Notes under the pieces: model-generated
What the model saw: only the letters and a program-made list of their open reading frames with translations
Told to the model about the DNA's origin: nothing
The model's database searches: none
Shown: positions 12,231 through 63,101 of the stretch, piece by piece
How the letters are laid out: each line of letters opens with the position of its first letter
Position numbering within the stretch: the stretch's first letter is position 1
Made by a program: the position numbers and the translations under genes
From: a bacterium
Lineage (GTDB): Bacteria; SM23-31
Length of the DNA stretch: 64,000 bases
Direction: 5' to 3'
Assembly: GCA_965221205.1 (NCBI GenBank)
Contig: OZ244870.1
Span: 1,118,782-1,182,781 of the forward strand

Positions 12231-13517
12231 ATGAAAACTTCTCATAAAATAATTAATGGTGATTGTCGACAGATGAATTGTTTGTCCAACAAATCTGTTC
12301 ATTTAGTCATTACATCGCCACCTTATTGGCATTTAAAAGATTATGGCATAGAAAATCAAATTGGATTTCATGATAGTTATGAAAACTATATAAACAACTT
12401 AAATTTGGTTTGGAAAGAGTGCCACAGAGTTTTATATCCTGGTTGTCGACTTTGTGTAAATATTGGAGACCAATTTGCTCGTTCTGTATATTACGGTCGT
12501 TATAAAATCATCCCGATTAGAACAGAAATAATAAAATTTTGTGAAACAATAGGTTTCGATTACATGGGGGCTATTATTTGGCAGAAGGTGACCACAACCA
12601 ATACGACTGGCGGAGCGACTATAATGGGAAGTTATCCTTATCCTCGAAATGGAATATTAAAACTTGATTACGAGTTTATTCTTTTATTTAAAAAGCACGG
12701 CAAAGCACCGAAACCATTTGCTGAGCAAAAGAAATTATCTGAATTGAGCAAGGAAGAATGGAATACATATTTTTCAGGGCATTGGAATTTTTCAGGAGCA
12801 AAACAAAACAATCATCTTGCTATGTTTCCTGAAGAATTACCTGCTAGATTAATAAAAATGTTTGCTTTTATTGATGAAACAGTTTTAGATCCTTTCTTGG
12901 GGAGTGGAACAACTTCTCTTGCAGCGAAAAATTTAGGACGCAATTCAATCGGTTATGAAATCAATCAAGAATATATTCCTAAAATCAAAGAAAAACTCAA
13001 CATGTTACAATTTGATATCGAAAAAACTGAATATATTTTCTTAAATGATAGTATAAAATCTGACTTGAATAAGGATATTAATGAACTTCCGTATATATTT
13101 AAAGACCCACTTAAATTAGATAAAATTATTAATCCTAAAAAATCACAATTTGGTTCAAAAATTGATATAAACAGGAAAGAACGAGAAGAGTATTATTCAG
13201 TGAAAGAAATCATTAGTCCTGAGTTAATAAAACTTAATAATGATTTGACTATTCGTTTGCTTGGTGTAAAAAATAAAGAAAGTAAAAATGTGGAGGCTAT
13301 TCAGTTTCTTTCTGATAAGACTAAAGGGGAAAAGGTATTTTTAAAATACGATGATATAAAGTATGATAAAAATAGCAATTTGCTTTGTTATTTATATTTG
13401 AAAAATAAGACATTCATTAATTCTCATTTAATAAAAGAAGGACTGGCAGAAGTTAATCAATCTGTAGATTTTAAATACAAAGACAAATTTCAAAAGTTGG
13501 CGATAAATAATGGCTAA
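12231..13517 (+). CDS. Beta-class (motif IV before motif I) N6-adenine/N4-cytosine DNA methyltransferase fused to a C-terminal degenerate thermonuclease (SNase-like) domain
   Basis: Motif IV is ITSPPYW near the N-terminus and motif I is LDPFLGSGTTSLAAKNLGRNSIGYE downstream. C-terminal residues ~300-428 resemble the staphylococcal-nuclease fold (IRLLGVKNKE ... LCYLYLKNKTFINSHLIKEGLAEV). The gene lies in a roughly 2 kb AT-rich island. Confidence 0.75.
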   Translation: MKTSHKIINGDCRQMNCLSNKSVHLVITSPPYWHLKDYGIENQIGFHDSYENYINNLNLVWKECHRVLYPGCRLCVNIGDQFARSVYYGRYKIIPIRTEIIKFCETIGFDYMGAIIWQKVTTTNTTGGATIMGSYPYPRNGILKLDYEFILLFKKHGKAPKPFAEQKKLSELSKEEWNTYFSGHWNFSGAKQNNHLAMFPEELPARLIKMFAFIDETVLDPFLGSGTTSLAAKNLGRNSIGYEINQEYIPKIKEKLNMLQFDIEKTEYIFLNDSIKSDLNKDINELPYIFKDPLKLDKIINPKKSQFGSKIDINRKEREEYYSVKEIISPELIKLNNDLTIRLLGVKNKESKNVEAIQFLSDKTKGEKVFLKYDDIKYDKNSNLLCYLYLKNKTFINSHLIKEGLAEVNQSVDFKYKDKFQKLAINNG

Positions 13518-13550
13518 ATAATGGCTAAATAATGGATATTGAATAGCTCA

Positions 13551-14162
13551 ATGAACCGATTCCAATTGAATTTCAAACGGAATGTTGGTCCAACTTCTGA
13601 AAATATACGAATGTGTGCTCCAGCGACTATTGAAGAATGGCGAGAATATTATTTTGAAAACGTTAGACCTAAAGAGCATATTGAAGATCTTGGCAGGAAA
13701 TTATATATTAAGATTACAGAAGTTATTTCAGCTGAAGTAGAAAAAATTACCGAACAGGATTGCATAAATTATATGATGCAATTAGTTATTGACCGGACAT
13801 TCGATGGTTATATGACAGAAATTAAAACAATTTATGGCCAGCTTCAAAAACTACTTGGTATAAAAATCGAACCTGCGCCTGACGAGTGGGATAGACTGTA
13901 CAACGTAGACTTCTGTATTAAAATTAATGAAAAGTTTGTCGGAATACAAATAAAACCAGTAAATCAAGGTATTCAGCTACCTCAGATATTTAAAGAAAAG
14001 GAGATTCAACGTAAATCTCATGAAAAGTTTAAAGATCGATTTGGCGGCAAGGTATTTTATGTCTTTTCTTCTAAAAAAGAAGACAAAAAAGAAATTATTA
14101 ATAAAGAAGTGGTTAGTGAGATATTACAAGAGATTGATCGATTAATATTAGATAACGATTAA
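13551..14162 (+). CDS. Candidate restriction endonuclease or other nuclease partner of the methyltransferase (unknown family)
   Basis: About 200 aa, starting 20-35 bp after the MTase stop on the same strand, with the same AT-rich composition. It has a possible PD-(D/E)xK-like arrangement VDFCIKINEKFVGIQIK. The assignment rests on gene context only. Confidence 0.35.
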   Translation: MNRFQLNFKRNVGPTSENIRMCAPATIEEWREYYFENVRPKEHIEDLGRKLYIKITEVISAEVEKITEQDCINYMMQLVIDRTFDGYMTEIKTIYGQLQKLLGIKIEPAPDEWDRLYNVDFCIKINEKFVGIQIKPVNQGIQLPQIFKEKEIQRKSHEKFKDRFGGKVFYVFSSKKEDKKEIINKEVVSEILQEIDRLILDND

Positions 14163-14283: not shown

Positions 14284-15654
14284 ATGACGACACAGAATAA
14301 CCGCGGCGGTTGGAGTTCCAGTTTGGGATTTATCCTGGCATCGGCAGGTTCGGCAATTGGTCTTGGCAATATTTGGCGTTTCCCCTATATGGTTGGTCAG
14401 AATGGCGGCGCAGCATTTGTCGTAGTGTATCTCATCTGTATTTTCCTCATCGGCTTTCCTATTATGGTGGCAGAATTGACTCTCGGTAGGTCGGCACAAA
14501 AAAATCCGGTTGGTGTATTTAAAGAGCGGGCTGTTGGGACACCGTGGGAGTTTCTCGGTTACATCATGGTTGTGATCGTAATGGTTATTTTTTCGTGGTA
14601 CAGTGTAGTTGCGGGATGGATTATCGGCTATTTTTATAAAACTGTAGTCGGAACGTTTAGTAACCTCTCAGGCCCCGGTGAAACGCAGGATATTTTTACT
14701 CAATTTGTAGGAAATCCGGTACCGGTCATGCTGCTGACACTTCTCTTCATTGTAATGACCGGATACGTTGTACTCGGAGGAGTCAGAAGTGGCATCGAAC
14801 GGTTGTCCCGTATCTTGATGCCGGTATTGCTGGTCATATTAATCCTTCTTGCAATCCGGTCGATAACACTTCCAGGTGCATCCGAAGGAATTGCTTACTA
14901 TTTGAAACCCGATTTTTCAAAACTGAACAGCAGTGTCATTGCGGCAGCTATGGGGCAGGCATTTTTATCGCTGAGTATTGGCGCTGGTTCCGTAATGACC
15001 TATGGCAGCTACCTTTCCAAACGTGATAATATTCCGATTTCATCATCCTGGGTCTGCTTTCTCAACACCAGCGTCTCTCTGCTGGCGGGATTTATTATAC
15101 TACCGGCAGTTGCCGCACTGGGACAGGAGTACACCGCTGGTCCCGGATTAATCTTCCAGGTTCTCCCTTCTATTTTTGGTGTTATGCCGCTCGGACAACT
15201 TTTCGGAATCGGACTCTTTCTGCTCCTTATTATTGCGGCACTCACCTCAACAGTATCCATGCTCGAAGTACCCGTGGCTTATTTTGTTGATGAACGCAAG
15301 TGGACCAGAAAAAAAGCTGTTATATCCATGGTTGTACTTTCGTTTGTGATGAGTACACCCGCAGCACTATCTGCCGGTGCAAGTGATTTTTTCTCAAAAC
15401 TGCCCGGTATCGGCATGGATTATCTCTCCTTTGCCAGCGCAATTTCCGGTGATATTTTTATGGTCGTGAGTGCATTTCTGATGACTTTGTTTATCGGATA
15501 TAAATGGACCATCAAAAATGCAATTGGAGAGGTGACGCTGAACAATATCAACTTTCCTTTGAGTCAGATATGGGGATTTTTATTGCGCTTTGTAATTCCG
15601 GTTTTTGTACTAATCATCTTATGGTTTTCAATAAAAAACAATTTCTTTGCATAA
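14284..15654 (+). CDS. Neurotransmitter:sodium symporter (NSS/SNF) family transporter, likely an amino-acid transporter
   Basis: 456 aa polytopic membrane protein with the NSS signature GLGNIWRFPY near the N-terminus. Confidence 0.85.
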   Translation: MTTQNNRGGWSSSLGFILASAGSAIGLGNIWRFPYMVGQNGGAAFVVVYLICIFLIGFPIMVAELTLGRSAQKNPVGVFKERAVGTPWEFLGYIMVVIVMVIFSWYSVVAGWIIGYFYKTVVGTFSNLSGPGETQDIFTQFVGNPVPVMLLTLLFIVMTGYVVLGGVRSGIERLSRILMPVLLVILILLAIRSITLPGASEGIAYYLKPDFSKLNSSVIAAAMGQAFLSLSIGAGSVMTYGSYLSKRDNIPISSSWVCFLNTSVSLLAGFIILPAVAALGQEYTAGPGLIFQVLPSIFGVMPLGQLFGIGLFLLLIIAALTSTVSMLEVPVAYFVDERKWTRKKAVISMVVLSFVMSTPAALSAGASDFFSKLPGIGMDYLSFASAISGDIFMVVSAFLMTLFIGYKWTIKNAIGEVTLNNINFPLSQIWGFLLRFVIPVFVLIILWFSIKNNFFA

Positions 15655-15914
15655 GCTTTAATTATAAGATTAAATTCGAATATATGTATTTACTGTGATG
15701 AACAGTATCGAAAATCTTTCTGTATTGAGAGGAGTGAGCAGTTCAATTCGGTTGTATATAGTGTGCTTATCGAGCTTTGCAGTTTTATCTTTATTTTCAT
15801 GCAGCGAAAATTCTCCATTTGATTTTCTGACGTGGCAGGACATCGCTGCTTTGCCTGTATGCCGACTACCGAATTCAGTATGGTGACGGTGAATTACAGT
15901 TTGGAAATCTGCGT

Positions 15915-16547
15915 TTGCCGGAAACTTCCGGATTACATCCTCTTGTGGTTGTCATTCATGGTGGGTGCTGGCTCAACACGTTCGACCTTGAGCATGCCGG
16001 AAATCTCTGTGCGGTATTTTCCGAAGCAGGAATCGCGACTTGGAGTCCAGAATATCGGCGTGTTGGCGACATCGGTGGAGGATGGCCGGGGACCTTTGAA
16101 GATGTAGCTCAAGGTTTAGACTATGTTCGGGAATTAGCAGAGATTTATCCGATCGATGTAAACCGGGTGATTACAGTCGGGCACTCTGCTGGCGGACATC
16201 TAGCACTCTGGTTGGCTGCACGAGCAAATTTGTCTCAGGATAGTCCTCTCTATACACCGGAACCATACCGGATACAAGGAGTCGTTTCACTTGCAGGCAT
16301 TACAGATATAAAAACATACAGTGCCGGTCCGAACGACTGCAATCAAGCGGCTCTCCATCTGCTTGGTGGAACAGTTGCAGATGTAAAAGACCGATATGAC
16401 CAGACAAATCCTCTTGATCTGCTTCCTTTCGGCATTACACAGCGATTGATTCACGGTTATCATGATGAAATAGTTTCTCCGGATCAAGCTCGAATGTATG
16501 TTGAGCGTGCTCAAAATGTCGGAGATGACGCTGAGAAATTATTATGA
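15915..16547 (+). CDS. Alpha/beta-hydrolase esterase/lipase (HGG oxyanion motif plus GHSAGG nucleophile elbow); the 5' region is apparently frameshifted away from a lipoprotein-type signal peptide in the 15695 frame
   Basis: Motifs VVIHGGCW and GHSAGGHLALW. Upstream ORF 15695-15886 encodes a signal/lipobox-like peptide (LSLFSCSENS). The hydrolase frame continues upstream as YADYRIQYGDGELQFGNLRLPE only after a frame change near 15840-15860. Confidence 0.65.
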   Translation: MPETSGLHPLVVVIHGGCWLNTFDLEHAGNLCAVFSEAGIATWSPEYRRVGDIGGGWPGTFEDVAQGLDYVRELAEIYPIDVNRVITVGHSAGGHLALWLAARANLSQDSPLYTPEPYRIQGVVSLAGITDIKTYSAGPNDCNQAALHLLGGTVADVKDRYDQTNPLDLLPFGITQRLIHGYHDEIVSPDQARMYVERAQNVGDDAEKLL

Positions 16548-16716: not shown

Positions 16717-17667
16717 ATGTCTCATACTACCCGGAATAGAATGGTCCTCCATAAAGAAACACCTCTCATTGAATCCCTACAGCTTCGGAAACGTACCGGA
16801 AAAAAAGTGTTCTTAAAAATGGAAAATCAGCAGCCGACCGGGTCGTTCAAAATCCGTGGTATAGGCCACTATTGCTCAGAGCTTGCACCATCAGGCGTGT
16901 CCCGGTTTATCTCCTCATCGGGCGGAAATGCCGGGTATGCTGTTGCTTATGCGGGAAATACATTGATGATAAACGTTACGGTAGCAGTACCCGAAACCAC
17001 ACCGCAATTCGTACAGGACCGGATTCGTGAATGTGGCGCAGATGTTGAAATACATGGTTCGATCTGGGATGAAACAGACGAGTATGCAAAAAAATTGGCT
17101 CACAATCTTGATGGCGCGTATATTTCTCCATTTGACCATCCTTCGATCTGGAACGGGCATGCTTCAATTATCGATGAGTTGGTACATCAAGCCGATAAAC
17201 CAGATGTTGTGGTTCTCTCTGTCGGTGGGGGTGGTTTACTCTGCGGTGCGATTGAAGGTTTACAGCGGAATGACTGGAGCGATGTCCAGGTCATCGCTGT
17301 CGAAACTGAAGGCGCTGCTTCGTTTGCCGCATCGGTATCGGCCGGTACGCTTGTGACACTCGACCGAATTGATTCTATTGCTTCAAGTCTTGGAGCCAAA
17401 CAGGTGACGTACAAATCACTAGATTTCTACAATACACTCGACATTACACCCCATATTGTCTCCGACCGAGATACAGTCGAAGCCTGTCTTGCATTTCTGA
17501 ATGATCACAATGTCCTGGTTGAGCCGGCTTGTGGCGCCGCATTGTCAGTTGTGTATTCAAATTCAAACGTGATCCGAGATGCACAGACGGTCATGATCAT
17601 TGTCTGCGGCGGTATCGGTGTTACTCCGGAGAAACTCAGGGAGTGGGATGAATCACTCCCTTTATAA
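16717..17667 (+). CDS. PLP-dependent L-serine/L-threonine dehydratase (SDH-like, fold-type II)
   Basis: 316 aa with PLP lysine motif SFKIRGIGH and glycine loop SVGGGGLLCGA. Confidence 0.8.
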   Translation: MSHTTRNRMVLHKETPLIESLQLRKRTGKKVFLKMENQQPTGSFKIRGIGHYCSELAPSGVSRFISSSGGNAGYAVAYAGNTLMINVTVAVPETTPQFVQDRIRECGADVEIHGSIWDETDEYAKKLAHNLDGAYISPFDHPSIWNGHASIIDELVHQADKPDVVVLSVGGGGLLCGAIEGLQRNDWSDVQVIAVETEGAASFAASVSAGTLVTLDRIDSIASSLGAKQVTYKSLDFYNTLDITPHIVSDRDTVEACLAFLNDHNVLVEPACGAALSVVYSNSNVIRDAQTVMIIVCGGIGVTPEKLREWDESLPL

Positions 17668-17672
17668 GAATA

Positions 17673-18872
17673 TCAGTCTTCCATCCGTTTTATTGATACT
17701 ACTTTCGGGAATATTGATCTTGTAATCCCCACCATCGGCACGGTAGTCAGCCAGACACGCTCTCCTTCAATAATTTTCATATCGATCTCATCAACCGATT
17801 GTACATCTTTCATTTCAGGTTTTATCTCGGTAATAATGCCGAAGAGTTCGGATTCCGGTGTAAAAACAGTACTGGTCATAAAACAGAGCGATTTTCCGGC
17901 ATGTTCATTCTCATCAGAAATGGTAAAAGCAATTTTAATTGCTTCACCGCCCGGTGCCTGAGACTCTGTAATAAATCGAACTGTTGCAGGATATCGGCCT
18001 TCCGGAGGGAAATAATTTTCTTCCTGCACTTTTACTTCTAATTGTATTTCCTCAATCAGAAATGTCTTTGCCCGATAGTTTCCGTCAGGAAGCACGGTCG
18101 GAATTGAGTACTGCGGATCGGTCAACAAGGCATACACAGTCGGATCGCCATCTCTCACTTTTTCTTTCGAGTTCAGCGGCCATTCGCTGCTGATTTGCTC
18201 AGCCCGTCCTGGGAGATTTTGTGCACTCAAAATCGATGTAATCGTCCAGTACATGTACTCGTCGATCTGACAGCCGTACCGGCATGATTCATCGTAGTAG
18301 TTATACCAGGAGCCATCGGGATACTGCTCGGGGGCATCCTTGAAATGTCCGCCTCTCGCTAAGTCCGCCGCCGCCGCCACTTTTGAGCCAGGTACGGGTG
18401 CAAATACCGATGGATATGCATTGCCCCATCCGTGACGCGTCAAGAGGTGGAGAGTCTCTTCCCATAAACCGTCGAACGTGTTGTTTTCGATAGCATTCGG
18501 ACGTGATTCATCAGCGAAATTATCGTGATAGACACCGTCGGGAAACGCGTAATGCAAGTCCTCATGGATCGCTTCCCATTCGTCTCCGGAATCCTTCGTC
18601 ATGACAAGTATAGCTTTTTTCTCGACCAGCGCATTCACAACACGCTGATCGTCAGGTATTCCGTCTTCATCATTGTCAAGATATTCTGCCAGAACATTCG
18701 CTGCATGCAGTAATTTTTCGTTGGGAGAGGTCGGAGTAGCATAGAGATGAATGCCAAATACATCCACCTGCTTCGTAAACACCGGGACTTCCAGTTGTTC
18801 TGTGCTAACTGTTGAGCAGCTAATCACCGCTAAATATGATAATCCTAACAGTGTGATCAATAATCTCTTCAT
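17673..18872 (-). CDS. Secreted lipoprotein of unknown function, tandem paralog 1, containing an HEDLH (HExxH-like) motif
   Basis: 399 aa. Signal peptide with lipobox-like LAVISCST. About 88% identical to the ORF at 19100-20299. Confidence 0.7.
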   Translation of the reverse strand: MKRLLITLLGLSYLAVISCSTVSTEQLEVPVFTKQVDVFGIHLYATPTSPNEKLLHAANVLAEYLDNDEDGIPDDQRVVNALVEKKAILVMTKDSGDEWEAIHEDLHYAFPDGVYHDNFADESRPNAIENNTFDGLWEETLHLLTRHGWGNAYPSVFAPVPGSKVAAAADLARGGHFKDAPEQYPDGSWYNYYDESCRYGCQIDEYMYWTITSILSAQNLPGRAEQISSEWPLNSKEKVRDGDPTVYALLTDPQYSIPTVLPDGNYRAKTFLIEEIQLEVKVQEENYFPPEGRYPATVRFITESQAPGGEAIKIAFTISDENEHAGKSLCFMTSTVFTPESELFGIITEIKPEMKDVQSVDEIDMKIIEGERVWLTTVPMVGITRSIFPKVVSIKRMED

Positions 18873-19009
18873 CGAAACCTCCGTAACTCAGCAATACGTT
18901 TTATCATCAAAACGGTATTATTCACGTGTTATTCATAGCTATACAAAAATGATTTTTAATGCTAATCCGTGTACGAGAGTAAAACTTCATCGGTCATTGC
19001 TGTCGGAAA

Positions 19010-19095
19010 CATAAGGTGCTGCTTCGTTTGCGGCATCGGTATCGGTGTTACTCAGGAGAAACTCCGGGAGTGGGATGCATCACTCCCTTCATAAG
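19010..19095 (+). pseudogene. Remnant of the 3' end of the serine dehydratase gene, copied with the duplicated unit and carrying an internal deletion
   Basis: 19010-19040 matches 17305-17342 and 19041-19095 matches 17610-17667, so the segment between them is deleted in this copy. Confidence 0.7.
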
Positions 19096-19099
19096 AATA

Positions 19100-20299
19100 T
19101 TAGTCTTCCATCCGTACTATTGATACTACTTTCGGAAATACCGATCCTGTAATCCCCACCATCGGTTCGGTAGTCAGCCAGACACGCTCTCCTTCAATGA
19201 TAGTCATATCGATCTCGTCAACCGATTGCACATCTTTCATTTCAGGTATTATCTCGGTAATGATACTGAAGAGTTCGGATTCAAGTGTAAAAACAGTACT
19301 GGTCATAAAACAGAGCGATTTTCCTGCATGTTCATTTTCATCGGTAATGGTAAAAGCAATTTTAATCGCTTCACCGCCTGGTGCCTGAGACTCTGTAATA
19401 AATCGAACTGTTGCAGGATATCGGCCTTCCGGAGGAAAATAATTTTCTTCCTGCACTTTTACTTCTAATTGAATTTCCTCAATCAGAAATGTCTTTGCCC
19501 GATAGTTTCCGTCAGGAAGCACGGTCGGAATTGAGTACTGCGGATCGGTCAACAGGGTGTACACACTCGGATCGCCATCTCTCACCTTATCCTTTGTGTT
19601 CAGCGGCCATTCGGCGTTAATTCGCTCAGCCCGTCCAGGGAGATTTTGTGCACCCAAAATCGATGTAATCGTCCAGTACATATACTCGTCAATCTGACAG
19701 CCATACCGGCATGACGCATCGTAATAATTATACCATGAGCCATCAGGATACTGCTCAGGAGCATCTTTGAAGTGTCCGCCTCTCGCTAAGTCCACCGCCG
19801 CCGCCACTTTTGAGCCAGGTACGGGTGCAAATACCGTTGGATATGCATTGCCCCATCCATGACGCGTTAAAAGATGGAGGATTTCTTCCCATGAACCGTC
19901 GAACACGCCGTCTTCGATAGCATTCGGACTTGTTTGGTTAGCGTAGTTGTTGTGATAGACAGCGTCGGGAAATGCGTAATTTAAATCCTCATGGATCGCT
20001 TCCCATTCGTCGCCGGAATCCTTCGTCATGATGATAATAGCTTTTTTCTCGACCAGCGCATTCATAACATGCCGGTCATCGGGTACACCATCTTCATCAT
20101 TATCAAGATATTCTGCCAGAACATTTGCTGCGTGTAGCAATTTTTCGTCGGGAGAAGTCGGAGTAGCATAGAGATGAATGCCAAACACATCTACCAGTTT
20201 CGTTAACACCGGGACTTCCGGGTTTTCCGAGCTGACTGTGGTGCAGCTCATCAACACCAAACATGACAATCCTAACAGTGCGATCAATAATCTCTTCAT
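19100..20299 (-). CDS. Secreted lipoprotein of unknown function, tandem paralog 2, with HEDLN in place of HEDLH
   Basis: 399 aa. Lipobox-like LVLMSCTT. Flanking non-coding DNA is also duplicated. Confidence 0.7.
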   Translation of the reverse strand: MKRLLIALLGLSCLVLMSCTTVSSENPEVPVLTKLVDVFGIHLYATPTSPDEKLLHAANVLAEYLDNDEDGVPDDRHVMNALVEKKAIIIMTKDSGDEWEAIHEDLNYAFPDAVYHNNYANQTSPNAIEDGVFDGSWEEILHLLTRHGWGNAYPTVFAPVPGSKVAAAVDLARGGHFKDAPEQYPDGSWYNYYDASCRYGCQIDEYMYWTITSILGAQNLPGRAERINAEWPLNTKDKVRDGDPSVYTLLTDPQYSIPTVLPDGNYRAKTFLIEEIQLEVKVQEENYFPPEGRYPATVRFITESQAPGGEAIKIAFTITDENEHAGKSLCFMTSTVFTLESELFSIITEIIPEMKDVQSVDEIDMTIIEGERVWLTTEPMVGITGSVFPKVVSIVRMED

Positions 20300-20430
20300 C
20301 GAGACCTCCCTAACTCAGCAATTTGTTTTATCATCAAAACGGTATCTTTCACTTGCCATTAGTAGTTATACAAAAATGATTGCTGATGCTAATCCGTGTA
20401 CGAGAGTAAAACTCCAGCAAAAAACAATTA

Positions 20431-21504
20431 TCACTCAAGAACCTTTGCCATATTCCAAAGTGACGAGTTGTGAAAATCGGCCACAAAGCTGCCGGGCGGG
20501 ACCAGTTCATCGCATGTAGTGCGGGCCTCATCACTGAGTGACATGTCTAATACCGGCAGAAGGTTCTCCAGATGTTTAATGGTCCTGCACCCTATGAGGG
20601 GAGCCGTAATTCCCGGCTGGTCTTTTACCCACAACAGCGCCAGTTGTGCGGCAGGAATTCCAACTCTGTCTGCAAGTTTCAAAAACTCTTTGCTGACTGC
20701 GATCCCTCTCTCGCTGATACGTTTTGTATAAAAGCCTCCCCGTTTGACCGCACGTGAATCTTTCGGAAAGTCGCTTGTGCTTTTATATCGACCAGCCAAT
20801 ATTCCCATTGCAAGAGGACTCCAGGTAATGAGTCCGACTCCATACTTTTGAGCAATCGGTATGAGTTCATTCTCGATGCGGCGGTCAAGTAAATTATACG
20901 GTGGCTGCTCTGTTGCAATGCGAACATAATCCTTCAATTCACTGAACATGATAGCTTCCATCACTACCCAGGCGGGATGCGTTGAAAAGCCGATATACCG
21001 AATCTTACCCTGCCGGACAAGATCAGTCAATGCATTGAGTGTTTCATCGATTGGTATATTCGGTGTAAACCGGTGGAGCTGGAATAGATCGATATAATCT
21101 GTCTGGAGACGCTTCAGGGCTTGTTCACAAACCCGGATAATATTTGAACGTGAATGACCGAATTCATTCGGGCCGATTTTGTCGAGAACCATATCCGGGC
21201 GTATATTGAATGTCGATTTATATTCATCGAGTGATACACCAATTCGCTTTCTTCCGTGGTCAACTTTCGTTGCAATAAAAACCCGGTGCCGCAATTTGTT
21301 TTCTTTGAGCGTTCTACCGATTATTCGCTCACTTTCGCCCTCACAATAGGTATCTCCTGTATCCAGTAAATTAATACCCGCGTCGAGTGCACAGTTAATA
21401 ATCTTGTTTGCTTCTTTTTCAGATGTGGCATCTCCGAAATTATCGCTTCCGAGTCCCATTGGAGAAACATTTATTCCTGTCCGTCCTAATTGTCTGTATT
21501 CCAT
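20431..21504 (-). CDS. Aldo/keto reductase family oxidoreductase
   Basis: 357 aa with AKR N-terminus MEYRQLGRTGINVSPMGLGSDNFG and motifs LLDTGDTY and IGFSTH. Confidence 0.85.
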   Translation of the reverse strand: MEYRQLGRTGINVSPMGLGSDNFGDATSEKEANKIINCALDAGINLLDTGDTYCEGESERIIGRTLKENKLRHRVFIATKVDHGRKRIGVSLDEYKSTFNIRPDMVLDKIGPNEFGHSRSNIIRVCEQALKRLQTDYIDLFQLHRFTPNIPIDETLNALTDLVRQGKIRYIGFSTHPAWVVMEAIMFSELKDYVRIATEQPPYNLLDRRIENELIPIAQKYGVGLITWSPLAMGILAGRYKSTSDFPKDSRAVKRGGFYTKRISERGIAVSKEFLKLADRVGIPAAQLALLWVKDQPGITAPLIGCRTIKHLENLLPVLDMSLSDEARTTCDELVPPGSFVADFHNSSLWNMAKVLE

Positions 21505-21592
21505 CTTACATCTTTCGTAGTAACATAGTTTATCAATAACTATTGTTCATCATTTAATTATTATAATTCAAGATATATCAATATATATTTCA

Positions 21593-23128
21593 TTACCATG
21601 GCAATGGAGCAACACGAGGCAGTTTTTCATCCCGCATAGCTGCATGATATACGAATGTTGCAAGTATAACCGTATTTGCCATGAGGTCTTCGGGTACAAG
21701 ACGGTCAAATACGTCCATGTTGGAGTGGTACCTGCGACCGTCCATTCTATCCTGTAGAAAATAATACCCCGGAAGTCCTACCTCATCATATGCCTCATGT
21801 GCCATTCCCGTAGAAAAAAGATGTCTCATTCCCAGGTTGTAAAGCGGCTTCATCCATTCGGTAAAGATTGACCGGGTCATTTCATTACCCATAATGTTCA
21901 GACCTTTTATTCTGGCAGCGCCGTTATCGATGTTAAAATATGCCGATAGATTATGATAATCTGGTTTATATTCCTTTTTAGCAAGGTTGGCAAAATTATT
22001 TCGGACATGACTCCGGTTGCCGTATAAACCCATTTCATGTCCACCCCAGAGTCCAATTCGTAGTGTTCTCCGCGGTTTGATACCGAGTGCCTTGAAGATA
22101 CGAACTACTTCCATTGAAACAATAGTACCGGCGCCATCATCAGTTGCACCTGTCCCGACGGGCTCCGACTGAAGATGTCCGCCTACTACAACTAATTCAT
22201 CTGCCAGGTCTGTACCGGGAATCTCTGCGACAACATTATAATCATTCGGATCGTCTCTGGGGAAATCCACTTTAATATCAATTTCCAATTCCACTGGGAT
22301 CCCTTTTTCAAGAATACGTACAATCCTGTTGTAATGTTCCGCTGCCATAATAATCTCTCTGATGGGTGGCGGAGCATCCGTATTCCACATTTGATTTGTC
22401 ATAGCATATCCCCCTACCGCAGTATCGACTGTGCCGAAATCATTTTTCCCATCCGTTCGGGCAACCATATAGGCACCTGCTGCGAACAACATGTCGATTT
22501 TCTGCTCCTGCGAAAGCCCGGCATTACGGCGTCTGCGCTCGCGAACAACAGGAGGGCCGACGGGAGTTTTCGCCATTTCGTCCAATTCTTCTTCGGTATA
22601 TGGTTGTGTCATCGGCTCAAAGTGCGGTGTGATTACCTGTTTCGCCTGCATAAAAACAATTTTATCCCGAATAGTATTCCGGTATGTATCAAGGTCCGAT
22701 TCGGTGTTAATTTCATCAAGATTAATATGTATTGCCTCTGCCTCTATTTTTCCGTCTGTTCCGGCAGACCAAGCAGCAGGATACGCTATGATAGGCATAT
22801 ATTGGGGGGCAATCATGTGGATGGATGTGTATAAATTTTCCCAGCCTACACCAAATTCGAACGGTTCCAGCCGCACATTTGAGAGTCCATACTCTTCCAG
22901 TTTTTCTTTCGCCCATTGTGCAGCAGCATTATAACCGGATGATTTCGAGTTCCGGGGCCCATACACATCAGTTATCCAGCTGGCATTCTCCATCACTTCA
23001 GAGCGTTCAAATGCTTCGTCCATGATCTTATCGACGACATCCCAGTGGACCGGTTCCTGTGCAAAGACAGTTGAAGTTACAGCAACTGTTAAAAACAATG
23101 CTACCATGTATCTGTAATAATTACTCAT
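21593..23128 (-). CDS. Secreted M28-like (PA-domain-containing) metallopeptidase-fold protein, paralog 1 of 7
   Basis: Signal peptide ending AQEPVHWDVV. M28-like core GGHLQSEPVGTGATDDGAG ... WGGHEMGLYGN ... HSNMDVFDRL. Conserved C-terminal tail DEKLPRVAPLPW. Confidence 0.6.
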   Translation of the reverse strand: MSNYYRYMVALFLTVAVTSTVFAQEPVHWDVVDKIMDEAFERSEVMENASWITDVYGPRNSKSSGYNAAAQWAKEKLEEYGLSNVRLEPFEFGVGWENLYTSIHMIAPQYMPIIAYPAAWSAGTDGKIEAEAIHINLDEINTESDLDTYRNTIRDKIVFMQAKQVITPHFEPMTQPYTEEELDEMAKTPVGPPVVRERRRRNAGLSQEQKIDMLFAAGAYMVARTDGKNDFGTVDTAVGGYAMTNQMWNTDAPPPIREIIMAAEHYNRIVRILEKGIPVELEIDIKVDFPRDDPNDYNVVAEIPGTDLADELVVVGGHLQSEPVGTGATDDGAGTIVSMEVVRIFKALGIKPRRTLRIGLWGGHEMGLYGNRSHVRNNFANLAKKEYKPDYHNLSAYFNIDNGAARIKGLNIMGNEMTRSIFTEWMKPLYNLGMRHLFSTGMAHEAYDEVGLPGYYFLQDRMDGRRYHSNMDVFDRLVPEDLMANTVILATFVYHAAMRDEKLPRVAPLPW

Positions 23129-23160
23129 AATATTTCTCTCCTCTCAAGTTGAATATTTTC

Positions 23161-24807
23161 TTACCATAGTTTTTCAATTTCATCGGTGAGACCGGTCATC
23201 TCCCACCGCACTAACGACATGGGGATCATTCCCAAAGCCCTGAAATCATCGACAAATTCACCAAGAACAAAATCATCACCACGGACTTTTGCTGCATCTT
23301 CTATCAAACTCATCATCTGTATTTTCCCGAGAACCATTCCCATATGCCAACCGGGAGCACGAAGTGTCGTCTTCATCTCAAACCAGACTTCATGACCTCC
23401 ATCGATCATCCAGTTGTATGGTGTTTCTTCGTAGCAAAACTGGAGCGCATCGGCCAGGTCAAATTCATTGTTATGCATTTTCAGATCGGCCAGACCACGC
23501 ACAGCCCGGAAGGCTTTCGCGATTAAATTGACCTCCTCTCCACGTGGACGGTCTTCATAAATTCCGGAATGCAGAAAAATTTCTTCGAGTCCGAAAGCCA
23601 TACCCTCATTCCGAATCATATCGATATCATAGAGCCTGGTGGTTCCCCGTATCGGTCGTCCGTCACGCTGATGTATTAATTCATCCAGATGGTGACCAAG
23701 GTTATTATGTGCCACTTCGGCAATCATATCACGGTCTCTGCACTGTTGAAAAAAGTCCTGTTTGTCTTCCGATCCAGGTGCATTCCACCATTCTCCCGGA
23801 TTGTTCGTTGTCATATAGTCCGGTATGGTGAACAAACCTTCATCCTCGATGAATTGAAACATATACTGTTCATCATTTCGCCATCGCCGCTGGTACTCTT
23901 CAGGAGATGAAACTAACTGAAGGGGAGGCAGATTGCGGTTTCTGTGCTCAACAATTTTAAGCGCCCCGACTGAGTGTTCATATTCTCGCTCGAGGCTTGC
24001 GTACAGTTCATCCCAGGTATAGGGAACAAGATGCACATTTTTGAGCCACCAGTTATAGTTTTCTTTTCCGATTCCCGCTGGAGTGGTCATTGAATTAATG
24101 TTCGCTTCGATCCATTTACCGTAATCCTCCACTGCGGCAATTGCCAGTTCAATTTCTGAGAGCATTTCGGGATGGTGTTCCGTCAATTGTTTGCCGAGGT
24201 TTTCATACAGTTTTATTTCTCTTTCAAGAAAATGCAGAGCAATGAGAGCGAAATCCCCAGCTGCTTCGGTGAGATTCCCCTTTGCCTGTTCAAGCAGTTC
24301 AGGAGCAGCCCGAAGCTGTGCTCTGAAATTCGCAGCTTCTTCTTCAGACATTGGCAGTTCGGAAATTCTTGGTCTTCCATAAGCCGTCGGTCCGGCACCT
24401 CCCATAGAAAATAAGTAGAATACAGGATCCCGCGACCACGGCCTGCGTATTGTATGGTCGAATTCCAGACCGTTCATTTCTGCACGCACTACGTGGTAAT
24501 CCACTTGCTGCAAAACAGGCCAGTCACTTAAATTAATCGCCGCAAGTCGTTGCTGATATTCCTGTATTCTGCTGAACTGTTCCCTCAGTGCTGAAGCAGT
24601 GTAGTCGGGAACACTATTGATTTCTTTCGGTCTCTCAAATTCTCGAAATTCCTGAAAAAGTGCAATGAGATCATCATATGAATTCAATTCTGTCATGTCG
24701 GTTCTGCTACTCTCCGAAGTACACGACACGAAGAGGAGGATAAAAAGATACATGCAAACTCGTATTTTCAAATAATGTCTGTTCATAATATTCTCCAAAT
24801 ATTTCAT
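23161..24807 (-). CDS. Secreted hypothetical protein, possibly DUF885-like, embedded in the M28-like gene array
   Basis: 548 aa with N-terminal signal/lipoprotein sequence (LFILLFVSCTSES). Contains NLGHHLDELIH and GGHEVWFEMK segments. The DUF885 assignment is from memory of that family's conserved HH-containing motifs and is unverified. Confidence 0.35.
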   Translation of the reverse strand: MKYLENIMNRHYLKIRVCMYLFILLFVSCTSESSRTDMTELNSYDDLIALFQEFREFERPKEINSVPDYTASALREQFSRIQEYQQRLAAINLSDWPVLQQVDYHVVRAEMNGLEFDHTIRRPWSRDPVFYLFSMGGAGPTAYGRPRISELPMSEEEAANFRAQLRAAPELLEQAKGNLTEAAGDFALIALHFLEREIKLYENLGKQLTEHHPEMLSEIELAIAAVEDYGKWIEANINSMTTPAGIGKENYNWWLKNVHLVPYTWDELYASLEREYEHSVGALKIVEHRNRNLPPLQLVSSPEEYQRRWRNDEQYMFQFIEDEGLFTIPDYMTTNNPGEWWNAPGSEDKQDFFQQCRDRDMIAEVAHNNLGHHLDELIHQRDGRPIRGTTRLYDIDMIRNEGMAFGLEEIFLHSGIYEDRPRGEEVNLIAKAFRAVRGLADLKMHNNEFDLADALQFCYEETPYNWMIDGGHEVWFEMKTTLRAPGWHMGMVLGKIQMMSLIEDAAKVRGDDFVLGEFVDDFRALGMIPMSLVRWEMTGLTDEIEKLW

Positions 24808-24844
24808 CGATTACTTCACAGTTGAATAGTTTTATATGATTTCA

Positions 24845-26434
24845 CTACCACGGTAATTGAGCAACACGGGGAAGTTTTTCATCACGCATTGCAGCATGAT
24901 ACACAAACGTTGCAATAATGGCAACATTGGTCATCGTGTTTTCCGGAATAGCGCGATCTAACATGTCCATATTAGTGTGGGCATTCGTTTCCATATCATT
25001 TCTATCCTGATAAAAATAAAATCCCGGCAATCCGACTTCAGCGTACGCTTCATGGTAACCAGGATTACCGCCGATAGGCATTCCGCCGGGTATCAGATGT
25101 GACATACCCAGGCTGTGTAACGGCTTCATCCATTCGGTAAAAATTGACCGTATCTCTTCATTCCCCATGACCGATACAGCCCGTATCTTACCGGTTCCAT
25201 GATCTGAATCAAAGTACGCTGAAAGATTATGATAATCCCTTTTATATTCTTTAGTAGTCGGATCCGCAAAGTTTTTGCGGACATGACTCCGGTTACCTGC
25301 TAATCCAGCGCCATCATGTCCACCCCAGAGTCCCATCCGAACGGTTCGCCGTGGTTTAAGCCCTAATTTTTTAAAAATCCGTGCAACTTCCATAGCAGAA
25401 GCTGCACCGACTGCGTTATCAGTCGCACCGGTACCGACAGGCACAGACTGAAGGTGACCACCAAATACAACTATTTCATGCGGTAGATCAGTGCCGGGAA
25501 TCTCGGCAATAACGTTATGGTCATTCGGATTACCCCTGAAAAAGTTTGTCCGGACTTCGATCTCCATTTCGACAGGAATTTCCTTATTCAATATTCGAAT
25601 GATCCGGTTATATTGTTCCACTGCCAAGACAAGCTCTGTAGGCTGTGGAAGTGCACCCTCTTTCCACAGTCCTGATGCTCTATCATATCTACTGAGCGCA
25701 ACTGTTCCGAAATCATGTTGGCCGTCCGGGTGTGCAATAGCAACGGCACCCTCAGCAAATACAAAATCGATGATTTGTTGGCGCGTCAGTCTGTTTTCAC
25801 TAAGATTGGGTCTCGTCCGCCCTTGTCTTTGTAATTCAATATCCAACACAGATATTTCCGGAGCAATGGGTATTTTCGCCATTGCATCGAGTTGCTCTTT
25901 TGTAAATATTGTTGCTATTGGTTCAAAATGGGGTGAGAGTTTGTGTTCCGGTCTTATAAATATGATTGTGTTCTTTAATTTTCCTCGGTATTGTTTCAAA
26001 TCTGTTCCAGAAACAAGTTCGTCAAAGTTGATATACATGGCATTGGCCCGGATTTTTCCATCTGTTCCGGACGACCACGGAGCAGGATAGGCAATAAGCG
26101 GCATATACTGGGGAGCCATCATGTGTACTGAGGTGTAACCAATATTCCAACCGGCACCGAATTCGTACGGCTCAAGTCTGGCATTCGTGAGACCATTCTC
26201 TTTGAGTCTGTCTCGAGCCCATTCCGCAGCCGCACGGTATGAAGGTGTCTTCACATTTCGAGGTCCGTATACATCAGCCAGCCAGCTGGCATTGTCCATA
26301 ACTTGAGAATTATTAAAAGCTTCTTCCATTATTTTATCTACGACATCCCAATAGACCGGTTCCTGTGCGAAAGCTGATAACGTTAAGAGAACAATTAACA
26401 ACATTACGACGATATTGTGATAAAGAGTGCACAT
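24845..26434 (-). CDS. Secreted M28-like PA-domain protein, paralog 2 (variant with WGGHDGAG)
   Basis: Signal peptide ending AQEPVYWDVV. GGHLQSVPVGTGATDNAVGA ... WGGHDGAGLAGN. Tail DEKLPRVAQLPW. Confidence 0.6.
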   Translation of the reverse strand: MCTLYHNIVVMLLIVLLTLSAFAQEPVYWDVVDKIMEEAFNNSQVMDNASWLADVYGPRNVKTPSYRAAAEWARDRLKENGLTNARLEPYEFGAGWNIGYTSVHMMAPQYMPLIAYPAPWSSGTDGKIRANAMYINFDELVSGTDLKQYRGKLKNTIIFIRPEHKLSPHFEPIATIFTKEQLDAMAKIPIAPEISVLDIELQRQGRTRPNLSENRLTRQQIIDFVFAEGAVAIAHPDGQHDFGTVALSRYDRASGLWKEGALPQPTELVLAVEQYNRIIRILNKEIPVEMEIEVRTNFFRGNPNDHNVIAEIPGTDLPHEIVVFGGHLQSVPVGTGATDNAVGAASAMEVARIFKKLGLKPRRTVRMGLWGGHDGAGLAGNRSHVRKNFADPTTKEYKRDYHNLSAYFDSDHGTGKIRAVSVMGNEEIRSIFTEWMKPLHSLGMSHLIPGGMPIGGNPGYHEAYAEVGLPGFYFYQDRNDMETNAHTNMDMLDRAIPENTMTNVAIIATFVYHAAMRDEKLPRVAQLPW

Positions 26435-26467
26435 TGTATTCCTTATATTGTATGTTGAAGAGTTACT

Positions 26468-28018
26468 TTACCATGGCAGCGGTGCAACTCTGGGAAGTTT
26501 CTCATCACGCATAGCAGTATGATACACAAACGATGTCAGGACAACTGAAGCTTGCATCAAGCCTTCCGGAACAAGCCTCTCATAGGTATCCATATTACTG
26601 TGTGAATTCATGTCGTCGATCTCTTTTCGGTCATGGTCAAAATAAAAGCCCAGCAGACCGACTTCCCTGTATGCTTCATGTTGGCTTCCTGACGTAAACA
26701 GATGTGTCATACCCAAGTTTTTCAGCGGCTTCATCCACTCGGTAAATATTGATCTGAGAAGTTCATTTCCCATAATGGAAACACCCCGTATCCTGCCGGT
26801 TCCAATATCGATATTGTAATATGCAGAGAGGTTATCATAATCCTTTTTGTATTTTTTCGTTACCGGATCAGCAAAGTTTTCCCGGACATGAGCACGGTTC
26901 CCGATCGTACCCATTTCATGACCTCCCCAGAATCCTACTCGGATCGTTCGTCTTGGTTTGACTCCGATCGCCATAAGAGTTCGTGCTGCTTCAAGTGTAG
27001 CCACGACACCCGCACCATTATCAATAGCACCCGTACCAGCAGGATTCGCCTGCAAGTGCCCCCCAAAAAGAACTATTTCATTCGCCAGGTCAGTACCGGG
27101 AATTTCTGCTATGACATTGAAATCGTTTGGACCATCACTGTTAAAAGAGACTCGCACTTCAAGTTCTATTTCAACAGGAATACCTTTTTCCAAAATTCGC
27201 ATTATCCTGTTGTAGTGTTCAGCAATCATGATCAATTCTGTTGGATTCGGTTGCGCCCCCTGTTCCCATGGCCGTGTTTCCATCGTATATCGTCTATTCT
27301 CAACTCTGACAGATCCATAACTGCTTTGTCCGTCTGTACGAACAATTGCCACTGCACCTTCACCAAACACAAAGTCGATAATCTGCTGTCTCGATAGCCT
27401 ATCATCTTCCGACCTTCGACCGCGGTGCACTTGTGTGACACGGGGTCCAACAGAAATTTTCGACATTTCATCAAGCTGTTCATCGGATAATCTCTCATTA
27501 AGCGGAGTAAATCTGTGTGTGATCTCCTGTTTCGGCGTGGTGAATATGATAGCGTTGTGCAGATTACCCCGATACTGTTCCAGATCAGATTCTGAAGCAA
27601 TCTCATCGAAATTTACATAGACGATCGGGCCACGAACTTTTCCATTAGTACCCTCGGACCACAATGCGGGATATGCGACGATCTGCATGTACCGAGGGGA
27701 CATCATGTGAACAGAAGTGTAGTTGTTATCCCAGCCAATACCAAATTCATACGGTTCCAAATGTGCGTTTGGAACACCATAATCATCCAATTTTTCTTTT
27801 ACCCATTCAGCTGCAGCAAAATAACTTGGCGTTTTTGCGCCCCGCGGTCCAAAGACGTCGGTCAGCCAGCTGGCATTTTCCATGACTTCGTTATTTGCAA
27901 ACGATTCATCCATAATCTTCTGCACAACATCGTAGTATACTTTTTCCTGTGCATTGGTGGAGACTGCTGCAATAAGCAGTATAATTAATCCAGCTACACA
28001 TATACATTGAGCTTTCAT
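26468..28018 (-). CDS. Secreted M28-like PA-domain protein, paralog 3
   Basis: Signal peptide ending NAQEKVYYDVV. GGHLQANPAGTGAIDNGAG ... WGGHEMGTIGN. Tail DEKLPRVAPLPW. Confidence 0.6.
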   Translation of the reverse strand: MKAQCICVAGLIILLIAAVSTNAQEKVYYDVVQKIMDESFANNEVMENASWLTDVFGPRGAKTPSYFAAAEWVKEKLDDYGVPNAHLEPYEFGIGWDNNYTSVHMMSPRYMQIVAYPALWSEGTNGKVRGPIVYVNFDEIASESDLEQYRGNLHNAIIFTTPKQEITHRFTPLNERLSDEQLDEMSKISVGPRVTQVHRGRRSEDDRLSRQQIIDFVFGEGAVAIVRTDGQSSYGSVRVENRRYTMETRPWEQGAQPNPTELIMIAEHYNRIMRILEKGIPVEIELEVRVSFNSDGPNDFNVIAEIPGTDLANEIVLFGGHLQANPAGTGAIDNGAGVVATLEAARTLMAIGVKPRRTIRVGFWGGHEMGTIGNRAHVRENFADPVTKKYKKDYDNLSAYYNIDIGTGRIRGVSIMGNELLRSIFTEWMKPLKNLGMTHLFTSGSQHEAYREVGLLGFYFDHDRKEIDDMNSHSNMDTYERLVPEGLMQASVVLTSFVYHTAMRDEKLPRVAPLPW

Positions 28019-29623: not shown

Positions 29624-29657
29624 TAGTACGCCCCTATAAATTATTTGATATAATATG

Positions 29658-31205: not shown

Positions 31206-31589
31206 AGAAAAACCCTCCTGAAACAATGTACATATTTAAATTATTTCGGACACCACATCTTTAATAGTACCTAATAGTACCTTTTGAATATTGATTTTAC
31301 AAGTGTTTTTTCTTCCTCTCCATGCAGATTCGATAAATATAAGAATTCATAGCCGTGAGGTTGATTGAAAAACCTCAAAGATGAATAACCGGGGTTCTAT
31401 ATTTTACTTCATTATCATTTTATACAGATTGTTATTCTCACTAAAATTTTGTATATTACTACCGTAGTTTTTGAAAGGTTGTTCACAAGCAGTCAAAGAC
31501 GAATCCTGGAGTAGGATACTGTTCGCCGGAACATGTTCCTGATCCGGGTTTTTGTATTTTGTCTACACTGTTTATTGGAAGTTGTGATG

Positions 31590-60075: not shown

Positions 60076-60319
60076 AAATGAAAGATTAAAAAACAGCCTC
60101 AATTCCATACGGGTTAGGCTGTATAGCAATAAACCCTCCTTATATGTGCAAATAAAGTTTTAATCGTTGTCTATATTATATTGGAGGAGAGTTACCTGGA
60201 TTACTACCTTTCGGAGGAGGTGCGAAAATAAGATTTGGATAAACCAAATCTATCCCTTAGTTTTTAACCGAAAGTGTCCAACATGTTCTGATGATGTAAA
60301 CTCAATCAGGAATTACACA

Positions 60320-62100: not shown

Positions 62101-63101
62101 ATGAGATATGAAATGGAATACAGAATATTGGGCCGAACTGGATTGAATATCTCTCCAATATGTTTTGGTGCGGGCAACTTTGCTGAACCGACACCGGAGA
62201 AAGAAGCGAAAAAAATGATTTATCGGGCTGAAGATAACGGTATAAATCTTCTTGACACCGGCGACGTTTATGCCGACGGTGAAGGAGAACGGATAATCGG
62301 ACGGGCTCTGAAAGAAGAAGGATTGCATCAGAGAATGCTTATTTCTACAAAAGTGCTTCCGGACCAACTCTTTAAAGGACTGGAATATAAATCCCCGGAC
62401 ACGACCCTCATAATCGCGATCACTCCAGACTCAAGATTATCAAAGCGTGCGAAGCTTCTCTAAAACGTCTTCAAACCGATTATATCGATCTCTACCAGAG
62501 ACTCATCGCCACGCCCATTATATTCCATTCGAGGAGACTCTATGTGCTTTAAATGACCTTGTCCGTACTGGTAAGATACGGTATATCGGCTGTTCGACAC
62601 ATCCAGCTTGGGCAGTAATGGAAGCCGTAATGGTAAGTAGGATGAGCGGCTATGCCCAATATGCCTCAGAGCAGTCACTATATAATTTACTTGACCGGCG
62701 TCCGGCGTATTGAAAATGAACTTATCCCGATGTGTCAGAAGCTTTGTATCAATGGACTTGGCATCATTTCGTGGTCACCAACAGCACAGGGTGTACTTGC
62801 GGACCGGTATAGCGGCAGTTTCTATGCAGATCGTGTTACTGAACCGGGAATTCAAGTGGGAGTCGAGTTTGCAAAGATAGCTAAAAAAACCGGCGTTACA
62901 CCCATACAACTGGCGATACTCTGGTGTAAGACCAACCGGGGACCACAGCAACTCTCATGGGACCGCGCACCCTTGAACAGATTGAACATTTACCGCCCGT
63001 TCTCAACATGGAACTGGACAATGAAACACGAGCGGCATGCGATGAACTGGTTCCTCCCGGAAGCGTGGTGGCAGATTTTCACAACACCGCAGCCTGGTTG
63101 A
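62101..63101 (+). pseudogene. Aldo/keto reductase paralog in three frames
   Basis: ORFs 62101-62463 (MEYRILGRTGLNISPICFGAGNF...LLDTGDVY), 62447-62713 ([17 protein letters not shown]) and 62652-63101 correspond to consecutive parts of the intact AKR at 20431-21504. Confidence 0.65.

Follow-up and report, generated by a model that had tools for sequence, protein, structure and literature searches.

Tandem duplication of a lipoprotein gene in an uncultivated bacterium, with a readable joint and a probable history of recombination between relatives

Introduction

How does a bacterium come to carry, head to tail, two copies of a gene that already differ at a tenth of their positions: did the copies grow apart where they lie, or did one of them arrive different? 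The question is raised by a 64,000-nucleotide (nt) stretch of DNA, hereafter the window (contig OZ244870.1 of assembly GCA_965221205.1, positions 1,118,782 to 1,182,781, forward strand), in which two open reading frames (ORFs) of 399 amino acids (aa) lie side by side on the minus strand. Copy A (17673-18872) is a predicted lipoprotein gene, and copy B (19100-20299) is an intact second version of it. The window comes from a metagenome-assembled genome, which we call W, of an uncultivated bacterium. Its IlvC is 67-72% identical to the IlvC proteins of KSB1, Calditrichota, and Balneolales, and on this similarity W is an uncultivated member of the FCB group. We find that the pair is a real head-to-tail tandem duplication, ordinary in kind, and that the second copy probably reached W within a recombined block of about 9 kb, not by divergence in place.

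Results

Two diverged copies, both apparently functional

When the region is compared with itself, as the initial annotation of this DNA had suggested, the duplication is visible as an ungapped register of +1427, in which 17610-18989 aligns with 19037-20416 and 1233 of 1380 nt are identical (89.3%); blastn between the two units gives an E value of 0. The units are adjacent, in direct orientation and in constant register. Their extents follow from two alignment registers, +1704 for 17289-17341 and +1427 for 17610-18989. Unit 1 (17289-18989; 1,701 nt) holds the last 379 nt of a dehydratase-like gene, a 5-nt spacer, copy A, and a 117-nt leader, and unit 2 (18992-20416) is 1,425 nt long after a 277-nt deletion. 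The annotation had described two 399-aa lipoprotein genes about 88% identical, which agrees with the 89.4% nucleotide and 87.2% aa identity that we measured over the coding sequence. It had also spoken of amplification, and this is not borne out: there is no sign of more than two copies, and tblastn over the 64 kb did not find a third copy of the lipoprotein gene.

The changes between the copies are those of selected coding sequence. By the Nei-Gojobori method, dS is 0.319 and dN is 0.063, so that dN/dS, another check that had been proposed, is 0.20. Both proteins keep the residues at all 21 columns that are invariant in an alignment of 83 family members, and the 51 aa that differ between A and B fall on average at less conserved positions, 10 of them in a loop (aa 117-136) just ahead of an invariant EExxH helix. 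Both copies are intact, appear to be under purifying selection, and look functional. For the loop (aa 113-136) we considered positive selection, since dN/dS reaches 1.15 there; this segment was delimited post hoc and holds 3 synonymous and 13 nonsynonymous changes, and positive selection is not claimed.

Given that the source is a metagenome-assembled genome, a single gene could have been falsely expanded, an alternative that the initial annotation had also named, or two strain variants could have been stitched in tandem. Several observations make this scarcely credible. The copies are 10.6% diverged, in the pattern of selected coding sequence just described, and the rearranged piece of dehydratase at the joint between them is nothing that an assembler would make up. 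The locus is also present, at 99.977% identity and with identical units, on a circular 3.42-Mb long-read contig at 34× coverage; none of the 3 differences between this contig and the window falls within a unit. Proteins identical to A and to B are each encoded on three long-read contigs (3.83, 3.78, and 3.42 Mb), of which the 3.78-Mb one is that of the window. Both copies could be followed in the sequence of two assemblies (the window and L001/L003), and the unit is far shorter than long reads. Finally, a short-read contig of a different run matches the window without a difference across the dehydratase and stops at 17770, within the first 31-nt exact repeat common to both units, which is where a k=31 graph would branch given both copies. 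The divergence, the three long-read contigs, and the short-read break point together exclude an assembly artifact for practical purposes.

The joint and the trimmed dehydratase remnant

How the duplication was made can be read at the joint. Leader A runs to 18989 and is linked at 18992 to the equivalent of position 17289, inside the dehydratase gene. Between them lie two filler nucleotides, TC (18990-18991), which match neither parent when 18960-19000 is compared with 20387-20427 and 17262-17302. The homology between the units stops at 18989/20416. TCCAG (17285-17289 and 20413-20417) is common to the two parental breakpoints, or CAG only if the parent had a leader of the type found in the related lineage Q (below); since both parents are represented by proxies, the figure of 3-5 nt for the microhomology is uncertain. 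Self-comparison of the region revealed no long repeat or mobile element at the unit ends. To judge from this joint, the duplication is the product of illegitimate, microhomology-mediated recombination.

Beyond the joint lies a remnant of the dehydratase 3′ end, which we call the scar (18992-19094, plus strand). In local alignments it corresponds to 17289-17341 joined to a segment that runs from 17610/19 to 17667, stop codon included. Its first part (18992-19045) matches dehydratase positions 17289-17341 with 4 substitutions and one 1-nt insertion, and its second part (19037-19094) matches 17610-17667. The two parts overlap at 19037-19045, where a single copy of a 9-nt direct repeat, CGGTATCGG, remains. 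In the intact gene this repeat, found by reading the sequence and in local alignments, occurs twice on the plus strand, at 17333-17341 and at 17610-17618; these copies are 277 nt apart, and 277 nt, exactly repeat to repeat, are absent from the scar. The redundant 379-nt dehydratase fragment later lost these 277 nt between direct repeats, the expected product of slipped-strand or short-homology deletion. Since the truncation hits only this redundant fragment, no gene was disrupted.

The difference between the two registers (1704 − 1427 = 277) therefore gives an original unit of 1,704 nt, from 17289 to the equivalent of 20416, which ends 14 nt short of the stop codon of an aldo-keto reductase gene. 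The initial annotation had placed the junction at 19010-19095, had recognized there the end of the dehydratase with an internal deletion, and had concluded that the unit began inside that gene. All of this holds, with slightly shifted coordinates and with the start now placed at 17289. Its view of the flanks needs correction. It had called the dehydratase upstream and had both lipoprotein genes followed by copies of the dehydratase terminus; the dehydratase is in fact convergent with the lipoprotein genes, hence downstream of them, and it is intact. Copy B is indeed followed by a remnant, but copy A abuts the intact gene.

Leaders and hairpins travel with each copy

Each unit also duplicated the region upstream of the lipoprotein gene. 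In the leader alignment, leader A (18873-18989) and the duplicated part of leader B (20300-20416), both on the minus strand, are identical at 101 of 117 positions (86-87%), which is less than the near-identity that had been described. Both have a Shine-Dalgarno sequence, GGAGG, 5 nt ahead of the ATG. Positions 20417-20430 are outside the unit and reach the aldo-keto reductase stop codon.

At the other end of copy A, 5 nt separate its stop codon from that of the convergent dehydratase, and the last codons of the dehydratase form a G+C-rich hairpin, GGGAGTG-N8-CACTCCC (17639-17660), which on the minus strand follows the copy A stop at a distance of 13-36 nt. Its RNA folding energy is −14.7 kcal/mol on one strand and −15.1 kcal/mol on the other (z of −2.0 and −2.35), and the hairpin sequence is identical in lineage O, a relative described below. 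The scar contains a copy (19066-19087; −13.3 kcal/mol) just past the copy B stop, in the same placement relative to that stop as its counterpart has relative to the stop of A. Its two arms are preserved, and its single loop change recurs in a further relative, lineage S. The hairpin is a candidate two-way terminator for convergent genes, and such a role would account for the conservation of this part of the scar. Since the surviving scar tail contains the hairpin, each copy is equipped with a leader, a ribosome-binding site, and a 3′ hairpin of its own. In a scan with sigma-70 and terminator consensus sequences no hit rose above the level of shuffled sequence, and the hairpin escaped the scan owing to its weak U-tract. 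Neither Rfam nor a tRNA search yielded an RNA gene in the window.

The extra copy lies at the edge of a recombined block

We compared the syntenic locus across three related lineages, O, Q, and S. Lineage O (OZ252239.1, 3.78 Mb) and lineage Q (contigs of 3.79, 2.04, and 1.83 Mb) each have a single copy of the lipoprotein gene there. Lineage S is represented by a 19.7-kb contig with 2× coverage (ctg410330 of sample ERZ26167216) that terminates within the lipoprotein gene. At five genes spread over the window, W and Q proteins differ by 0.3-2.4%, which serves as the baseline, and O differs from W and from Q by 4.5-10.7% at the same five distant genes; W and Q are therefore sisters, with O as the outgroup. 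Any two of W/Q, O, and S are about 11.6% apart over the dehydratase gene. More distant relatives helped little. In a scan of JGI metagenomes no relative exceeded 64%, and a genome collection yielded only lineage O plus one 73% homolog at another locus. This 399-aa homolog of L004/L008 (3.62- and 4.05-Mb genomes) adjoins genes for L-rhamnose mutarotase and aconitase, so the position of the gene is not conserved across the wider group. Protein-level rooting with the 64-73% homologs as outgroups offered too few informative sites.

Against this baseline, a block of about 9 kb (18813-27840) stands out. Within it W and Q are 6-16% diverged, compared with 0-3% on either side, and their divergence is as large as that of either from O. 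The left switch falls between nt 58 and 219 of gene A (18654-18815 in the window) and the right switch near 27840. To the left of the block W and Q differ by 1-2%, with a dS of 0.032 for the dehydratase and of 0.039 for A versus the single Q copy. From gene nt 59 on, A and the Q copy are 98.7% identical (16 of 1205 nt differ), but 9 differences are packed into gene nt 13-58, and across leader A plus nt 1-60 of the gene as many as 30 of 173 positions differ, against a baseline of 1.3%. Within the block lie the start of copy A with its leader, the scar and copy B, then the reductase, the M28 peptidase and DUF885 genes beyond, and most of the M28 gene at 26468-28018. Because the boundary lies here, the difference between one copy and two in these sister genomes is tied to a single homologous recombination with a diverged relative. 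Unique sites inside the block number 340 in W, 221 in Q, and 398 in O; the W/Q/O tree is thus nearly a star, and the block by itself does not tell the recombinant genome from the native one.

W and Q also differ in shorter patches (13445-13644, 15045-15244, and 30237-31036), which are 8-18% diverged compared with 1-2% otherwise. These patches suggest frequent short imports of diverged DNA in the population.

Copy B and the scar lean toward lineage S

Next to its near-identity with Q over most of copy A, the window has in copy B a gene with other affinities. Over gene nt 500-1263, 10 informative sites group A with O and B with S, 4 group A with S and B with O, and 3 group A with B and S with O. 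A and B are thus grouped together at only 3 of 17 informative sites and are not sister sequences. The grouping of B with S rests on these 17 sites, with P = 0.027 for one prespecified split and about 0.08 for any of the three.

The scar points the same way. Compared with the dehydratase alleles of four lineages, it differs from W at 9 of 107 positions, from S at 9 of 107, and from O at 12. Its private changes amount to 3 substitutions and 1 indel in 107 nt, all of them in part 1, and two of its states are common only to the S allele, among them the hairpin loop base. An old and unconstrained scar would be expected to have far more private changes, and a young derivative of the present W allele would not have two states in common with S; the scar is neither.

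Divergence between A and B is uneven along the gene. In nt 745-1035 (17838-18128 in A and 19265-19555 in B, minus strand), dS is 0.17, compared with 0.41 in nt 1-744. A maximum chi-square analysis delimits a segment, nt 771-1029 (permutation p<0.001), in which A and B group against O at 20 of 24 sites. Conversion between paralogs and allele exchange between lineages would each give this pattern. With O as the sole reference, unique sites in nt 1-750 number 29 in A, 65 in B, and 28 in O (Tajima test, p = 2e-4). On three sequences we had concluded that the duplication was old, with an excess of changes specific to B and gene conversion, a conclusion dropped after Q and S were added. Over the leader and first 60 nt, A and B differ at 24 of 173 positions, and either differs from Q at 29-30, a difference that is not significant. 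We also considered that the Q leader might be the resident leader of the B position after collapse of a pair, and rejected this: the order of leader distances is unlike the prediction, though the differences are not significant.

Discussion

How the second copy may have reached W

The history that we tentatively prefer places the origin of the pair outside W. A 1,704-nt tandem duplication, followed by the 277-nt deletion, would have taken place in a diverged, S-related member of the species complex; a block of about 9 kb with the ready-made pair would then have been brought into W by homologous recombination that crossed over, on the left, within copy A, leaving A mostly as the resident allele and B as the foreign one. 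This would explain a difference between A and B of the size found between alleles of different lineages. Such an import accounts for the position at the block edge, for a leader A unlike that of Q, for the S affinity of both B and the scar, for the few private changes in the scar, and for the slightly smaller leader distance between A and B; it also accounts for their uneven divergence, which matches the range over the rest of the block. That the pair arose in an S-related relative and was imported by homologous recombination is to us a plausible account but not a confident one, and it needs the fewest events. Much of what separates A from B would on this account be interlineage divergence and not the decay of copies duplicated in place. 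The initial annotation had read amplification followed by divergence. Its head-to-tail duplication and the later loss from the fragment stand, but divergence in place fits poorly with a copy A that is 98.7% like Q and a copy B that groups with S.

Several observations weigh against an import. The exchange of the block could have gone the other way, with Q the recombinant and W native. The affinity of B to S hangs on the 17 sites and the P values given above. The S contig has only 2× coverage and terminates in the gene. No genome of a B-type donor was found in the databases, where the 90% cluster of B holds B alone. The leader comparison, 24 versus 29-30 differences, is not significant, and the tract at nt 745-1035 comes at least as easily from conversion between copies that were long co-resident.

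The main rival is that the gene was duplicated where it now lies, in the common ancestor of W and Q or before it, with divergence of the copies, partial conversion over nt 745-1035, and later losses. Q would have lost B through an imported single-copy block with its crossover in A, or by unequal crossing-over, and O, perhaps also S, would never have had the pair or would have lost one copy. This is the simplest reading of the topology, tandem repeats are readily lost by recombination, and the direction of the block exchange leaves room for it. The grouping of A with B at 20 of 24 sites of nt 771-1029 is what conversion between resident copies would give, and the relative rates over nt 1-750 fit a duplication that predates the split of W and O. 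Several independent losses would be needed, however: in O, in Q, and in S, should S have a single B-like copy beside the dehydratase. A scar of that age would be expected to show 8-10 changes in the 53 nt of part 1 and about 16 or more in 107 nt, compared with the 3 substitutions and 1 indel seen; the two states that it has in common with S would require parallel mutation; and A and B are sisters at only 3 of the 17 informative sites. We consider duplication in place rather unlikely, if a serious contender.

A further possibility is that W captured an allele directly, by a recombination that was homologous at its right end (about 27.8 kb) and illegitimate at its left end, where the interior of a donor dehydratase gene was joined to the resident leader. 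A foreign B and a donor dehydratase tail would thus have come to lie beside resident A, and the pair would never have been two identical copies. The coincidence of the block boundary with the extra unit, the affinity of B and the scar to another lineage, the few private changes in the scar, and the microhomology and filler nucleotides at the joint all agree with such an event, and one-sided homology with an illegitimate joint is known from natural transformation. It predicts, though, that leader A and nt 1-60 of A should be about 1-2% from Q, when in fact 30 of 173 positions differ. A rescue needs an extra divergent patch exactly here; patches exist nearby, and we estimate the chance at about 3%. 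Allele capture is thus improbable in our view. If true, this would be a case from nature, and from an uncultivated bacterium, in which paralogs were diverged from birth.

Comparison with known systems

Two sources, PMC8639346 and the review PMC11721125, describe a class of bacterial tandem duplications that are microhomology mediated, that is, illegitimate and RecA independent, and the review also deals with the loss of tandem repeats by recombination. The pair in W resembles this class in its direct units of kilobase size, its novel joint of two otherwise unrelated positions with 3-5 nt of homology, the absence of an insertion sequence element or long repeat from the ends, and the lack of any gene disruption. 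Laboratory tandem duplications are young, unstable, and identical, whereas here the units are 10.6% diverged and both are maintained by selection, two extra nucleotides lie at the joint, and the redundant fragment is already trimmed.

Deletion between short direct repeats was reportedly described by Albertini and coworkers in 1982 and by Bzymek and Lovett in 2001. The scar is of this kind, with 277 nt gone between 9-nt repeats and one repeat left. There is nothing unusual in it here; the deletion hit a nonfunctional fragment and so was cost-free. Gene conversion, or concerted evolution, between bacterial paralogs such as tufA and tufB is the comparison for the tract where, over about 260-290 nt, A and B are much more alike than elsewhere and group against the ortholog. 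The tract is still 4.5% diverged, so any such event was not recent, and in a recombining species complex allele exchange between lineages can give the same pattern. Homology-facilitated illegitimate recombination, in which natural transformation combines one-sided homology with an illegitimate joint, is said to have been reported by de Vries and Wackernagel in 2002. The locus resembles it in having foreign-looking sequence anchored by homology on one side and a microhomology joint on the other; it differs in that resident sequence up to the joint was looked for and not found (30 of 173 positions differ from Q).

All of these mechanisms, microhomology duplication, short-repeat deletion, and homologous exchange between relatives, are textbook. 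The value of the locus is its legibility: the joint, the trimmed fragment, and the retained hairpin can be read directly, and three lineages allow part of the history to be reconstructed. It also carries a caution for genome scans, since diverged tandem copies alone do not show that divergence followed duplication. In a recombining species complex, copies may carry preexisting divergence between lineages, and copy number can rise or fall with the recombined block.

A secreted family with a candidate new domain

Searches of Pfam, NCBIfam, and PDB sequences, with the single sequence and with an 83-sequence profile, gave no match for the lipoprotein. An exhaustive HMMER scan of 1.84 billion cluster representatives yielded 1,199 relatives at E<=1e-3, 302 of them at E<=1e-30, and nearly all match only aa 30-270. 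This widespread N-terminal domain thus counts about 1,200 clusters at 50% identity. The AlphaFold2 model of copy A (pLDDT 93.6) has two parts: an alpha/beta N-terminal domain at about aa 30-270 (18063-18785 in the window; relatives P0241-P0387) and, by Foldseek, an OB fold at about aa 274-396.

Foldseek found no credible PDB match for the N-terminal domain. The domain has an invariant E138-E139-x-x-H142 (EExxH) on a long helix, a conserved C197/C201 pair, many invariant aromatic residues, and a nearly invariant DNDEDGxPD loop of calcium type (DxDxDG). We considered a zincin-type metallopeptidase and rejected the assignment, as zincins are defined by HExxH and the motif here is EExxH. The C-terminal domain matches PDB entry 8s4s (E of 2.7e-4) and viral models (about 6e-6; 58 with E<=1e-3), with target-normalized TM-scores of 0.45-0.67 against OB-fold proteins. 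Its 120 aa have the fold of PrgE/SSB-like and phage DUF669 OB-fold proteins, a similarity of fold only; unlike in those proteins, the domain sits on a secreted lipoprotein, and sequence identity to them is below 20%. A role in DNA binding is unlikely because of this location.

Copy A has the lipobox AVIS-C19, a PROSITE-style pattern match only. In copy B the first pattern match is LGLS-C13, and VLMS-C19 also fits by eye. The additional signal-peptide cysteine in B, ahead of C19, comes from a Y13C change (codons 1-13, window 20263-20299), and cysteine 13 is absent from copy A and from the O and Q orthologs. Some family members have a signal peptide but no lipobox cysteine. In larger relatives the N-terminal domain is fused to subtilase (S8), trypsin-like, and TAP alpha/beta-hydrolase domains, as well as to Ig-like, EF-hand, and PD40 modules, and in the window the lipoprotein genes have as neighbors an array of M28 peptidases, a DUF885 protein, and amino acid transporters. 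With low confidence, we would take the protein for a lipid-anchored or secreted factor in the breakdown of extracellular protein or another polymer at the cell surface. The modeled N-terminal domain may be either catalytic or substrate binding, and it could represent a new hydrolase or peptidase-associated family. This is a sizeable unannotated secreted family with a confident predicted structure and a candidate for a new domain entry.

Flanking and neighboring genes

The dehydratase-like gene (16741-17667, plus strand) is of the pyridoxal phosphate (PLP)-dependent serine/threonine type. It is 308 aa as called, also in L001, and its ORF is open from 16717. The match to Pfam PF00291 is full length (E of 4e-68; 230 bits, with a cutoff of 35). 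The NCBIfam serine/threonine dehydratase models match below their cutoffs, and since the equivalog cutoffs are not reached, no substrate is assigned. On the other side, the aldo-keto reductase (20431-21504, minus strand; Pfam PF00248) is co-directional with copy B and upstream of it. It is called with 342 aa in the W assemblies and 357 aa in O and Q, and the ORF in the window permits 357. A second reductase-like stretch (62520-63085) is 74-88% similar to 20467-21059.

Seven M28-family peptidase paralogs with 70-83% nucleotide identity are found in the window, at 21593-23128, 24845-26434, 26468-28018, 28061-29728, 29658-31226, 39085-40674, and 60167-61867. Five of the seven form one array adjoining the duplicated gene, and the neighborhood is therefore rich in older duplications. 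A DUF885 gene (23161-24807) is present in W and Q, where O has instead an extra M28 gene at the syntenic position. A restriction-modification pair (12231-14162), consisting of an N6/N4 methyltransferase with an SNase domain and a MjaI-like endonuclease, occurs in W, Q, and O and is absent from S, with gene lengths that differ from one Q assembly to another. Lastly, a BD-FAE/alpha-beta hydrolase gene (15645-16547) appears truncated, with 210 aa from a TTG start and overlapping short ORFs upstream; the hydrolase is 315 aa long in O and S and 136-157 aa in Q, and it is probably a decaying gene. It coincides with a hot spot of W-Q difference (75 differences in 200 columns) that contains an indel.

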